The notes beneath the pieces were generated by a model that worked only from the letters and a program-made list of their open reading frames with translations, did not search any database and was not told the origin of the DNA. From positions 1 through 64,000 of the forward strand of contig JABCTZ010000022.1 in NCBI GenBank assembly GCA_018238155.1: a stretch of 64,000 nt of DNA, given 5' to 3'. A program made the translations under genes and the position numbers. Below, piece by piece: positions 21,489 through 41,099 of the stretch; position 1 is the first letter of the stretch; each line of letters opens with the position of its first letter. Source of the DNA: Candidatus Heimdallarchaeota archaeon (GTDB taxonomy: Archaea; Asgardarchaeota; Heimdallarchaeia; JABLTI01).

Positions 21489-21809
21489 TTACTTTCGAGC
21501 ACTGTTATTGATAACAGCATGTGTAACAGCAAAACGAGCAACGGGAACTCTGAGGGGAGAACAACTAACGTAATCCAAACTAATGCGATAACAGAAATCA
21601 ATGGATTTTGGTTCACTACCTTGTTCGCCACAAATACCTATCTCAATATCTTTGTTACCTTCATGACCACCTTTGACAGTCATTTCCATAAGTTGACCAA
21701 TACCATCTTGTTCAATGGAAACAAAAGGATCTTCGTCAAGAATGCCAAGATCAAGGTATAAACCAATGAACTTACTAGCATCATCTCGAGAGAAGCCAAG
21801 GCTCATTTG
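21489..21809 (-). pseudogene. ppdK 3'-end fragment 2 (321 bp, frame intact)
   Basis: QMSLGFSRDDA...DYVSCSPLRVPVAR.A...AVINN; colinear with 38397-38717. Confidence 0.93.
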
Positions 21810-21823
21810 ATGGAGGAAGTATA

Positions 21824-38430: not shown

Positions 38431-41099
38431 GCAGCAGCTAATCGAGCAACGGGAACTCGTAGAGGAGAGCAGGAAACATAGTCTAAGTTGGATCGATAGC
38501 AGAAATCAATGGATTTAGGATCACCGCCATGCTCACCGCATATACCAAACTCAATATCAGGATTGACAGACTTAGCACTAGAACAAGACATAGCGAGGAG
38601 CTTACCAACACCTGCTTGATCAATAGTAACAAATGGATCTTCGTCAAAAATACCCAACTCAATATAGAGAGGAATGAATTTACCAGCATCATCTCTTGAA
38701 AAGCCAATCGAGGTCTGGGTTAAATCATTAGTTCCAGCCGATGCAAAGGAAATTCCCGCTTTAGCAAGTTCATCAGACAGGAGTGCAGCTCGTGGCAATT
38801 CTATCATTGTACCTACTTTGAATTTTTCTAGTATTACCTTTGTTTCTTTCTCTACGTCTGCTTTCACTTTCATGATCATGTCTCTGGCAATTTCGAATTC
38901 TTTTACGAAAGCTACCACTGGAATCATGATTTCAGGATAGACTGAGACACCTTCTTTCTGCACATTAGTAGCTGCTTCGAGAATGGCTCTTGCCTGCATT
39001 TCAATAAGTTCAGGAATGCCTAAACAAAGGCGTACACCACGGTAGCCAAGCATAGGATTTTGTTCGCGCAGTTTTATTAGCTCGGCAAGTAGCTTCACTT
39101 TTTCAGATTCTTTTGGTAGTTTTTCTTTCCAGATTTCTTCTCTTAGTTCGATTTCATTTGGTAAGAATTCGTGTAGTGGTGGATCGATTAGCCTGATTAT
39201 TACCGGGAATCCTTTTGCTTCTCTGAATATCCCTTCAAAGTCTTCTCTTTGGAATGGTAGTAGGTCGAAGACATGTTTTCTTCTTTCTTCTGGGTTGTCT
39301 CTTGCGAGGATCATTTTTTGAACTATTGGCAGTCTATCTTTTTCCATGAACATATGTTCTGTTCTTGTTAGCCCAATTCCTAGTGCTCCGTAATCGATTG
39401 CTACTTTTGTTTGATCTGGTGTATCAGCGTTTGCTCTTACATGGAATCCTTTTCCTTCTTTCAGTGCTATTTCGTCTGCCCATTTTAGTATTGTTTTCAT
39501 TTCTTCGGACAATTTAGATTTCTTTAGCGGTAGTTTTCCTATGTAAGCTAAAGCATCAAATCCGTCTAGTGTCATCCACTCTCCTTCTTTGATGGTTAGG
39601 CCATTCATTCCTTCTAGCGCTGTTTTTGTTATGTGTATTCCTGACACATCTCCTGCTCCTGCTATGCAAGTTGTTCCTATTTGTCTTGAAACTACTGCTG
39701 CGTGTGATGTCATTCCTCCGCGAGCGGTAATTATTCCTTCACTTGCTGCCATCCCATGGAAATCTTCTGGCGTTGTTTCTTCGCTTACGAGTATTATTTT
39801 GTTTCCTTTTTCTGCTTCCTCTTTTGCTCTATCTGCAGTGAACATTGCTATTCCTGCTGCTGCTCCTGGGCTTGCCGGTAACCCTTTCGCCAATATTTTC
39901 GTTTGTACTTCTTTCCCATCGATCATAACTGTTTTTTCTTTTGGATTTTTCCATTCTATTTGTGGGAATAGCGAATTTTCTACATCTCTTGGTGTTACTC
40001 TGCTTACTGCTGTTCTCTTGTCAATCATGCCTTCTTTCTCGAGGTCAAAAGCAATCTTTGCTGCAGCTATACCTGTTCTCTTTCCGGTTCTTGTTTGCAG
40101 AATGTAGAATACTCCTTGTTGAATTGTGAATTCAATGTCTTGAATATCAGCATAATGTTTCTCCAATTTTTCACATATTTCATCGAAGATTTTGTACATT
40201 TCAGGCATTTCATCTTTCAATTTTGAAATTGGGTTTGGTGTTCTAACCCCTGCAACGACGTCCTCTCCTTGTGCTTGAATGAGGTATTCACCGTATCTGA
40301 CATCCTTTCCATTGGCTGGGTCTCTTGTGAAAGCAACACCTGTTGCGCTTGTCTCTCCTAAATTACCATAAACCATTGTTTGAATGTTTACTGCTGTGCC
40401 AATATCGTGTGGAATTCCTTCGTGATTCCTATAATTGACTGCTCTTTGTGTGTTCCATGATGAGAATACAGCATGAATAGATGCTTCTAGTTGTTCCATT
40501 GGATCTTGTGGGAAATCTTCTCCCAGTGTGTCTTTGTATATTTTCTTGAATTCATTGACAAGTGTTTTTAGGTCATCCGTTGTTAGATCGACGTCTTCTT
40601 TGACTCCTTTCTTCTCTTTCATTTTATCGAGAGCTTCATCGAATTTCTTCTTGCCCACGCCTTTGACGACATCGCCAAACATCATAATGAATCGTCTATA
40701 AGAATCATAAGCAAATCGTTCATCTTCTGAAACTTTTGCTAATCCTTTTACAGCTTTATCATTTAAACCAAGGTTCAGAACGGTATCCATCATTCCAGGC
40801 ATGGATATTCTTGCACCACTTCTTACACTAACTAAGAGTGGGTCTTTTGGGTCACCTAATTTTTTACCCATTTGCTTTTCTAAGTATACTAAAGCTTTCT
40901 TAGTTTCATCCATCATACCCTTTGGAAAAGTATTCTTATTTTCTAGGTAAGCAATACATGTTTCTGTTGTAATCGTAAAACCAGGGGGTATTGGAATTCC
41001 TAAACCAGTCATTTCTGAAAGATTTGCACCTTTTCCTCCGAGAAGATTTTTCATTTCTTTTTTGCCTTCTTCAAAGGAGTAAACATATTTAGTAGCCAT
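38397..41099 (-). CDS. ppdK: Pyruvate, phosphate dikinase
   Basis: LLGGKGANL, LVSVRSGA..SMPGMMDT, GGMTSHAAVV, GTNDLTQ, GICGEHGG. Confidence 0.98.
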   Translation of the reverse strand: MATKYVYSFEEGKKEMKNLLGGKGANLSEMTGLGIPIPPGFTITTETCIAYLENKNTFPKGMMDETKKALVYLEKQMGKKLGDPKDPLLVSVRSGARISMPGMMDTVLNLGLNDKAVKGLAKVSEDERFAYDSYRRFIMMFGDVVKGVGKKKFDEALDKMKEKKGVKEDVDLTTDDLKTLVNEFKKIYKDTLGEDFPQDPMEQLEASIHAVFSSWNTQRAVNYRNHEGIPHDIGTAVNIQTMVYGNLGETSATGVAFTRDPANGKDVRYGEYLIQAQGEDVVAGVRTPNPISKLKDEMPEMYKIFDEICEKLEKHYADIQDIEFTIQQGVFYILQTRTGKRTGIAAAKIAFDLEKEGMIDKRTAVSRVTPRDVENSLFPQIEWKNPKEKTVMIDGKEVQTKILAKGLPASPGAAAGIAMFTADRAKEEAEKGNKIILVSEETTPEDFHGMAASEGIITARGGMTSHAAVVSRQIGTTCIAGAGDVSGIHITKTALEGMNGLTIKEGEWMTLDGFDALAYIGKLPLKKSKLSEEMKTILKWADEIALKEGKGFHVRANADTPDQTKVAIDYGALGIGLTRTEHMFMEKDRLPIVQKMILARDNPEERRKHVFDLLPFQREDFEGIFREAKGFPVIIRLIDPPLHEFLPNEIELREEIWKEKLPKESEKVKLLAELIKLREQNPMLGYRGVRLCLGIPELIEMQARAILEAATNVQKEGVSVYPEIMIPVVAFVKEFEIARDMIMKVKADVEKETKVILEKFKVGTMIELPRAALLSDELAKAGISFASAGTNDLTQTSIGFSRDDAGKFIPLYIELGIFDEDPFVTIDQAGVGKLLAMSCSSAKSVNPDIEFGICGEHGGDPKSIDFCYRSNLDYVSCSPLRVPVARLAAAQAVINNGSRK

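Follow-up and report, generated by a model that had tools for sequence, protein, structure and literature searches.

The window analyzed here, a stretch of 64,000 nucleotides (contig C19, positions 1-64000) from a Heimdall-type Asgard archaeon whose genome (G000) comprises 4.08 Mb in 46 contigs, contains an inserted element of about 17 kb (~21,816-38,726) that splits the gene ppdK. We find that this copy is one of a family of ppdK-specific integrative elements of about 10-20 kb in a single Heimdallarchaeial genus, and that it brings with it both an in-frame replacement for the gene end that it displaces and a gene for a Cas1 homolog of the kind named aCas1; the window copy itself is probably no longer autonomous. 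As to how such elements move, we tentatively favor, with a chance that we put somewhat short of even, a mechanism in which aCas1 is the joining enzyme at the ppdK site and an established element later spreads by homologous recombination. A previous, sequence-only reading of the window had proposed a Cas1-mobilized, target-restoring element other than a casposon, of which the Cas1 fold, the bounded element and the lack of PolB and of terminal inverted repeats (TIRs) stand, whereas mobilization by Cas1 is put in doubt by cassettes that are bounded by ppdK tails but have no Cas1. Below, G numbers denote genomes, L numbers loci and C numbers contigs, and P893 denotes a type of protein of 893 amino acids that is encoded at one end of the element.

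The two borders of the element are both marked by ppdK sequence. At one of them lies intact ppdK (38397-41099, minus strand; 900 amino acids, with the Pfam domains PPDK_N, PEP-utilizers and PEP-utilizers_C), beside a PD-(D/E)xK gene and a winged-helix gene, an arrangement that had been described from the letters alone and that open reading frames (ORFs), Pfam and fold matches confirm. At the other border, a second copy of the ppdK 3' end (21489-21815, minus strand, within an open ORF at 21489-21827) is equally real: its segments 21489-21650 and 21678-21799 match 38397-38558 and 38586-38707 at 73-75% nucleotide identity, it matches PEP-utilizers_C (E 1.7e-11), and its translation is 67% identical to ppdK residues 793-900. 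The resident and the displaced tail differ by a synonymous divergence (dS) of 1.5, at about 74% nucleotide identity, and therefore are not the products of a fresh duplication. The displaced tail is of the native type, with 82% amino acid identity to the native tails of G005 and G008, and the low ratio of nonsynonymous to synonymous divergence in these comparisons (dN/dS 0.09-0.12) suggests that it functioned as a ppdK tail through most of its past. Displaced fragments in general resemble the native tails of element-free genomes (82-94% amino acid identity), and it is the tails attached to P893-type elements (in the window, G004 and G007) that are the outliers among tails.

The same conclusion follows from two sister genomes, G004 with the element (locus L044, G004:C34) and G008 without it (L045, G008:C235), in which the ppdK bodies differ by a dS of 0.32 (91% nucleotide identity) and the tails by a dS of 1.29 (75%). 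An element-free ppdK, for which the earlier reading proposed to compare related genomes, thus exists in G008. The opposite layout, with a native intact tail and an element-borne fragment, was considered and is ruled out by the G004/G008 comparison. Judged from dS and from this discordance, the last ~108-112 codons of ppdK in the window (38397-~38735, minus strand) are the element-borne replacement tail, and since this tail is in frame, ppdK stays whole.

It could be argued that the tails arise in place, by a giant duplication resembling CRISPR adaptation, in which a staggered Cas1 integration copies the ~330-bp tail so that tails play the part of "repeats" and cassettes that of "spacers". The layout is indeed array-like, with a leader-like ppdK body at one end and more decayed tails farther off, and regeneration of the target is known from casposons as well as from CRISPR repeats (PMC9939771). 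However, we regard this explanation as very improbable, because the dS between the resident and the next tail in the window, together with a G004 tail that proves foreign when set against the 93.5%-identical sister genome G008, argues that tails were imported rather than copied in place, and because a stagger of 330 bp is without precedent, that of casposons being ~15 bp (PMC9939771).

Farther from ppdK, behind a third tail (18203-18520), comes the terminator hairpin that the live gene also has, and beside it lies what remains of the decayed 3' end of a P893-type gene (18083-18226, plus strand); the hairpin and the remnant identify this stretch (18083-18520, minus strand) as the relic of an earlier element. 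New insertions land beside the ppdK body and push older ones away.

The element is not peculiar to the window, since its core is found again beside the ppdK tails of at least seven diverged loci, all within one Heimdall genus and sometimes in tandem, and the sequence-only reading was correct in seeing a bounded element that carries its own tail and restores its target gene. The core runs from ppdK or its tail through a convergent P893 gene, a LAGLIDADG-HTH gene, variable cargo, in some cases a TPR gene, then aCas1, helicase-MZB and phosphoesterase genes, to a further ppdK tail. Where contigs are long enough to judge (those of L003 and L009 end too early), this order is found, in whole or in part, in the window, L001 (GCA_050009915), G007, G004, G005 (one copy on C104 and two on C106, including tandem copies), G009, L086 and L087/L088. 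No part of the element is better conserved than the aCas1 operon, with 55-70% identity across loci vs 26-35% for P893, and the aCas1 fusion gene, where seen, always lies beside ppdK tails and never away from them; the direct adjacency of phosphoesterase gene and displaced tail is shared by L087. Tail fragments are frequent throughout the genus, with up to seven matches per genome, whereas other genera mostly have one intact gene.

The aCas1 fusion gene (24872-28510, minus strand) encodes 1212 amino acids, with the Cas1 domain at about residues 760-1160 (~25030-26233). An AlphaFold (AF2) model of residues 715-1212, for which 12 homologs served as input, reached a predicted TM-score (pTM) of 0.74 and a predicted local distance difference test score (pLDDT) of 69, and its top 50 Foldseek matches consist entirely of Cas1 and casposase structures, led by 6opm (E 1.4e-6). 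By VIA, it aligns with 7mi4 at Z 16.1 over 290 residues, spanning both Cas1 domains, and with the casposase at Z 14.3 (root-mean-square deviation 3.9, 241 residues). Residues E912, H994, D1010 and D1013 are invariant in 12 homologs of the protein, and hhalign against a Cas1 profile built from 18 Asgard Cas1 proteins places, over 221 colinear columns, the first three on the invariant E168, H233 and D245 and the fourth on the near-invariant E248, albeit at a low probability (4.4%). A HMMER family-profile search of 1.84 billion proteins returned 68 hits; among the 43 that match in a single stretch, nine carry Pfam Cas_Cas1 (PF01867, best E 7e-12) and three carry PDDEXK_1, and R, R, N, H and D residues are invariant across all 43. 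Model, structural matches, conserved E-H-D-D set and profile link to Pfam Cas1 thus bear out the Cas1 fold that had been suspected, and we regard the C-terminal part of the protein as established by computation to be a Cas1 homolog with a predicted intact active site.

This homology is remote. PF01867 gives zero match to the 1212-residue protein even at E 10 and, across the genome, detects only the canonical Cas1 on C15; direct searches of Pfam, NCBIfam, PADLOC and PDB sequences yielded nothing useful, and ESM Atlas features gave no usable match. The middle region of the protein is Cys-rich, and no fold was matched for the N-terminal ~440 amino acids. The idea that this N-terminus is a "dead helicase-like" domain was dropped after hhalign of residues 1-440 against the neighboring helicase family returned nothing. 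Homologs of the whole protein (42-96% identity) come solely from Heimdall-group data and, among 40 relatives, are confined to the genus of the window. The genome contains about seven paralogs of the Cas1 part and one canonical Cas1-Cas2 pair; Cas2 (PF09827) is matched on C15 only and nowhere in the element, and between 17000 and 42000 no CRISPR and no repeat array was found save a coding repeat in the SBBP gene discussed below.

Within the element, aCas1 is the only classical integrase-type enzyme. When every ORF of at least 80 amino acids in 21489-38430 was scanned, none matched a tyrosine or serine recombinase, a DDE transposase, PolB or Cas2, and PF00589 and resolvase domains are absent from the element and from nine related loci, in which no DDE family was recorded either. 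The earlier statement that cas2, a CRISPR array, polB, a TIR, a transposase and a tyrosine or serine recombinase are all missing was upheld by these ORF, profile and repeat scans. One recombinase that might act from a distance is encoded at C19:71085-72659 (L090 7085-8659; 524 amino acids), 30 kb from ppdK, as one of only two PF00589 matches in the genome. Its homologs occur in G010 (73% identity), G005 and G004, never on the contigs that carry ppdK, and were not found in G007 and G009, both of which bear the element. Its presence does not track the element across genomes, and we regard it as a less likely candidate for an integrase acting in trans. The sequence-only reading had named a tyrosine recombinase that accounts for ppdK-targeted islands lacking the Cas1-like gene as the observation that would speak against it; part of this was indeed observed, in that Cas1-less cassettes exist, but the distribution of the recombinase does not follow that of the element.

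These observations bear on the possibility that the ppdK 3' end is merely a hot spot or defense island, collecting cassettes by means of a recombinase in trans or by homologous exchange, with the aCas1 operon, P893 and the LAGLIDADG gene being defense or repair cargo and not a self-mobile unit. Nearly every genome examined has a different set of genes downstream of ppdK (HEAT/DUF2804, TPR_MalT, Cas6 and LVIVD genes are among the examples), some tail-bounded cassettes are free of aCas1, the cargo includes restriction-modification systems, NYN, HEAT-CHAT and AAA_15-DUF4435 genes, and the genome does have its two tyrosine recombinases. Nevertheless, we think it unlikely that a hot spot explains the whole: a five-gene core recurs as a unit in fixed order, with its own tail allele, although its proteins are only 26-70% identical; the one recombinase near the locus has the distribution just described; and the six P893-type elements whose proximal ends were compared all share an invariant motif of 34 nt there.

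This motif, ACTATATA(A/T)ATAGATTCGAAAGAGACCTCCCTAT (38246-38279, minus strand), lies ~130-150 nt past the ppdK stop codon and contains a TATA-like box and a TTCGAA palindrome. The P893 proteins of the six elements share only 26-35% identity, the motif falls outside the ORF in G007, and the P893 segment that it otherwise encodes is predicted to be disordered (pLDDT ~25), all of which suggests that it is constrained as DNA or RNA and not as protein. A second copy with up to 3 mismatches was found neither in the window nor in the genome, and an Rfam scan of 17-42 kb produced no match that passed the threshold. On this comparison of element ends, we propose it as a candidate recognition motif.

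The insertion point itself is defined by an alignment of 15 intact and fragmentary ppdK copies. Fragments begin inside the stretch that encodes GTNDL(H/T)QM, which in the window corresponds to the junction at codons 789-796 (GTNDLTQT; 38712-38735, minus strand), but not at a single fixed base: L086 keeps GGAACTAAT, most fragments start with AAT/GAT, the window fragment with CTCCAT and that of L087 with ATG. The TCCTCCA that precedes fragments, noticed in the earlier reading, proved to be native ppdK sequence (codons L-H-Q). At the other end, TAATTCG precedes the native tail in the window, in L087 and in the L001/G005 lineage, and may tentatively be considered a short right-end motif.

The genes of the element fall into two groups, separated by cargo. 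The distal group had been described as a coupled minus-strand operon of Cas1-like, helicase-DUF1998 and phosphoesterase genes, and the ORF map and Pfam confirm both overlaps, of 14 nt between the Cas1-like and helicase genes (24872-24885) and of 25 nt between the MZB ORF and the phosphoesterase gene (22441-22465). Its first gene encodes a TPR protein (28647-29549, minus strand; Pfam TPR), which is kept upstream of the Cas1-like gene in L001, L003, L008, L009, L086 and L087. The DExH helicase with its C-terminal MZB (DUF1998) domain (22441-24885, minus strand; Pfam DEAD, Helicase_C and MZB) is a single reading frame as claimed, but one that is interrupted by a single in-frame TAG (23530-23532) at which the closest relative, G009, has Lys; in relatives, the fused helicase-MZB genes encode 812-822 amino acids. 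The last gene of the element, for a metallophosphoesterase (21824-22465, minus strand; Pfam Metallophos), has a stop codon that abuts the displaced tail.

At the ppdK-proximal end, the P893 ORF (35749-38430, plus strand; 893 amino acids, or 871 from its probable start at 35815) is convergent with ppdK, overlaps its end, and adjoins a ppdK tail in 6 loci. It has zero Pfam match, but its structure model, which is only moderately confident (pLDDT 59), suggests two PD-(D/E)xK-like domains: by VIA, residues 651-800 resemble the Card1/Can2 nuclease domain (Z 9.6), AF1548 (Z 9.4) and the XisH-like 2okf (Z 8.9), and residues 384-504 resemble restriction-enzyme folds (Z ~5.7). On its side away from ppdK lies a small winged-helix gene (35392-35688, minus strand), MarR/HxlR-like by weak profile matches only (Pfam HxlR E 0.025, NCBIfam TcaR E 4e-4) and kept in G007 at 47% identity. 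The LAGLIDADG-HTH nuclease gene (33773-35383, plus strand; Pfam LAGLIDADG_3 and HTH_3) is interrupted by an in-frame TAG (35138-35140), through which tblastn homology continues to ~35383. In this family, the motifs GIIDGDGH and GLFDADAS with their catalytic Asp are invariant in 8 homologs, including those of other aCas1 elements, and we therefore take it to be a catalytically intact family of a mobility-type enzyme, as far as conserved residues can tell. A recoding of TAG, which might have explained both in-frame stops, was rejected, since the genome shows no TAG excess between long open stretches (17 TAG vs 65 TAA and 29 TGA, with TAG ending 22% of long frames). With no sign of genome-wide read-through, the two TAGs look like nonsense mutations or sequencing errors, and the element of the window seems partly decayed.

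The presence of an apparently intact LAGLIDADG family raises the possibility of homing without splicing, in which the LAGLIDADG-HTH protein cuts an empty ppdK GTNDL site and the break is repaired from an element-bearing copy, the two homology arms being provided by the ppdK body on the left and the retained native tail on the right, and with the aCas1 operon serving another role such as defense, repair or end processing. Besides the invariance of both motifs and their catalytic Asp in 8 homologs, several features fit this scheme. The insertion point is the coding sequence of a highly conserved catalytic motif, as is typical of homing endonucleases; the insertion splits the GTNDL site, and the element-type tail departs from the native one right after GAT; a conversion-like tract of ~50 nt lies upstream of the junction in G004 vs G008; L001, G005_C104 and G005_C110 share a near-identical right flank and tail (97% identity between the tails of L001 and G005_C110); and the native tail is retained with few defects. 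However, homing destroys its own site, and the tandem like elements of G005 would require changing specificities. Further, it would be odd for mere cargo that the aCas1 operon is the best-conserved part and never found away from ppdK tails, the scheme depends on one conversion tract, and the specificity of the LAGLIDADG protein for the GTNDL site is only a prediction. On balance, we consider homing alone less likely than integration by aCas1, but a serious competitor to it.

Taken together, we hypothesize that aCas1 catalyzes the integration. The element lies in the codons of the conserved GTNDL motif of ppdK, its ppdK-proximal end supplying an in-frame replacement tail of ~110 codons plus terminator and the native tail being moved to its far end, and repeated insertions produce tandem cassette arrays separated by old tails. 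The aCas1 domain, with its E-H-D-D residues, would join the element ends to the ppdK site by strand transfer, while preparation of the ends or of the target might fall to the nucleases (double PD-(D/E)xK and LAGLIDADG-HTH) and the helicase. An established element could also pass from one related genome to another, with homologous recombination taking place in the ppdK body and in the native tail that was retained. In favor of aCas1 speak its position as the sole classical integrase-type enzyme of the element, its high conservation among the core genes, its constant association with ppdK tails, the nuclease partners and flanking direct repeats of its paralogs, the tandem insertion seen in casposons as well (PMC9939771) and the suspicion in the literature that it is a transposase (PMC8730458, PMC10691335).

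Several observations weigh against a role of aCas1 as the integrase. Cassettes bounded by ppdK tails occur without it, namely at 18571-21269 in the window and, in G005, those with LVIVD and with Cas6 after ppdK. The ppdK copies on either side parted long ago (dS 1.5), which is not what the target duplications of Cas1-type enzymes look like, and the element ends are not paired by a TIR in the window or L001. The starts of fragments vary by up to ~25 nt among loci, and junctions share few bases (AAYGAY) and differ from locus to locus, so that no short target duplication can be defined, although with such divergence any short duplication (~15 bp) would be hidden. Identity between G004 and G008 stays at 97-99% up to a point ~388 nt before the ppdK stop, which lies ~50 nt upstream of where displaced fragments start, and the switch there looks like a homologous-recombination conversion tract instead of a clean transesterification junction. 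Insertion might be due to homing by the LAGLIDADG nuclease alone, whose gene belongs to the core and is as conserved as aCas1, the operon of aCas1, helicase and nuclease resembles defense or repair modules and sits among defense-like cargo, and the helicase and LAGLIDADG genes of the window both have in-frame TAG stops. Finally, no public sequencing run proved to contain the locus, so that reads give no evidence of excision; the best share of sampled words was 0.13, and this only as contigs.

Casposons are among the closest known systems. They constitute Cas1-solo group 2 (PMC4046053, PMC9939771, PMC6977970), occur in tandem copies and make ~15-bp target duplications (PMC9939771). The ppdK element resembles them in having a Cas1-family protein as its sole classical integrase-type enzyme, in targeting the 3' part of a conserved gene and in forming tandem head-to-tail copies, and the casposase 6opm is among the best structural matches of its Cas1 domain. 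Unlike casposons, however, it has no PolB, no TIRs and no definable ~15-bp duplication, it replaces ~110 target codons with its own diverged copy, its Cas1 is fused behind ~750 extra residues, and its core genes include LAGLIDADG and PD-(D/E)xK nucleases. The lack of PolB and TIRs agrees with its earlier designation as a non-casposon.

Islands mobilized by tyrosine recombinases at the ends of tRNA or protein genes also carry the 3' end of their target gene. There, as in ppdK, the element-borne copy restores the gene, the native end is displaced and arrays arise by repeated insertion, but the loci examined here have no tyrosine or serine recombinase and their junctions shift by as much as ~25 nt. 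LAGLIDADG homing elements, which comprise group I introns, inteins and free-standing homing endonuclease genes, share with the ppdK element a double-motif enzyme, a site in a conserved catalytic motif and a possible co-conversion tract. They differ from it in that the ppdK element has a replacement tail in place of splicing, 10-17 kb of cargo and a Cas1-family protein.

The closest precedent is aCas1 itself. It is described as a highly diverged Asgard Cas1 without Cas2 or a CRISPR array, predicted to act in new mobile elements or in non-programmable defense and suspected to be a transposase, and is cataloged with fusions to DNA-binding domains and with nuclease and helicase neighbors (PMC8730458, PMC10691335). 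The diversity of Cas1 is greater in Asgard archaea than in other prokaryotes (PMC8730458), and papers on the aloposon (PMC8813620) and on a mobile genetic element of Atabeyarchaeia (PMC11529989) concern unrelated elements. The window protein matches this description in its Asgard host, its distance from known Cas1 and casposase groups and the lack of an array. The literature searched, which did not extend to the 2020 original of Makarova, contains no ppdK target, replacement tail, core of P893, LAGLIDADG, helicase-MZB and phosphoesterase genes, or 34-nt motif. Asgard aCas1 homologs are reportedly treated in that article, by Makarova et al. in the CRISPR Journal (volume 3, page 156). We know of no aCas1 with a demonstrated function, substrate or target. 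While aCas1 loci were already known from computation, a ppdK-specific, tail-replacing family goes beyond the literature that we found.

For the aCas1 family, the locus provides an element with both of its ends, a target sequence, a candidate motif, partner genes and intact relatives. Should aCas1 prove to be the integrase, a third use of Cas1 chemistry would join CRISPR adaptation and casposons, in the form of a natural system that inserts 10-20 kb at a single specific site; should the LAGLIDADG nuclease drive the insertion, we would have a homing element of an unusual kind, in which a spare gene end takes the place of splicing. That a Cas1-family integrase, a LAGLIDADG nuclease and a double PD-(D/E)xK protein together make up a new class of site-specific element that keeps its essential target gene alive is a possibility that we still regard as doubtful. 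In either case, the arrays of ppdK tails record the shuffling of defense and other cargo in Heimdall archaea.

Other aCas1 loci of the host genome provide a further comparison. Flanking direct repeats, which the sequence-only reading had expected around such loci, are enriched there, being present at four of seven aCas1 loci and at 11 of 120 random ones. Two paralogous units of ~10-11 kb, at G000:C13:164993-176574 (L082) and G000:C43:2980-13305 (L083), have the order 700 aa, 233 aa, LAGLIDADG, PDDEXK_1 (Cas4-like), 203 aa, aCas1 of 627 aa and 192 aa, with direct repeats of 463 bp at 93% identity on C13 and of 71 bp at 89% on C43. However, the C13 repeat includes part of an element gene (the 192-aa ORF that also follows aCas1 at C43), and may therefore reflect tandem elements and not a target duplication. 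These short cassettes share with the window the trio of aCas1, PD-(D/E)xK and LAGLIDADG genes. Their aCas1 is of ~627 aa (winged helix-turn-helix, Zn and Cas1 parts), has a Cas4-like PDDEXK_1 partner and occupies other sites, whereas that of the window is of 1212 aa, coupled to helicase-MZB and phosphoesterase genes and tied to ppdK. The C13 unit also holds a Rad51/RadA-like gene.

The variable cargo of the window's element (29730-33648, plus strand), the content of which differs among loci, comprises by Pfam a NYN-LOTUS RNase (29730-30890), an EEP nuclease (30938-31657) and a HEAT-CHAT protein (31987-33648), all on the plus strand. Two loci from one metagenome, L086 (12087-13045) and L088 (10979-14312), differ by an AAA_15 and DUF4435 gene pair after the displaced tail, and since this insertion brought no extra tail copy, cargo must also change by another route. 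At L047 (G005:C74:4554-5366), an intact ppdK is directly followed by a convergent Cas6 gene before the contig ends after 1.3 kb, so a CRISPR-Cas cassette may also sit at the ppdK hot spot in G005.

The cassette between two ppdK tails that lacks a Cas1-like gene (18571-21269, minus strand) encodes by Pfam an SBBP beta-propeller protein (18571-20157) and a CarboxypepD_reg/C13-like protein (20349-21269), both on the minus strand. SBBP genes follow a tail fragment in L001 and G010, and directly follow the phosphoesterase gene in G009. In the latter genome, at the locus closest to the window (L054, G009:C88:2991-5641; operon 85-91% identical), the order is phosphoesterase, SBBP and then a ppdK tail, without the tail and the CarboxypepD_reg gene found in the window at 20349-21815. 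The SBBP gene of the window holds 3.3 copies of a 189-bp coding repeat (18984-19614, 70% match). Across the whole window, ARAGORN detected zero tRNA genes, and a self-comparison revealed repeats of 45-65 bp at 9772, 11490, 12409-12427 and 13996-14054.

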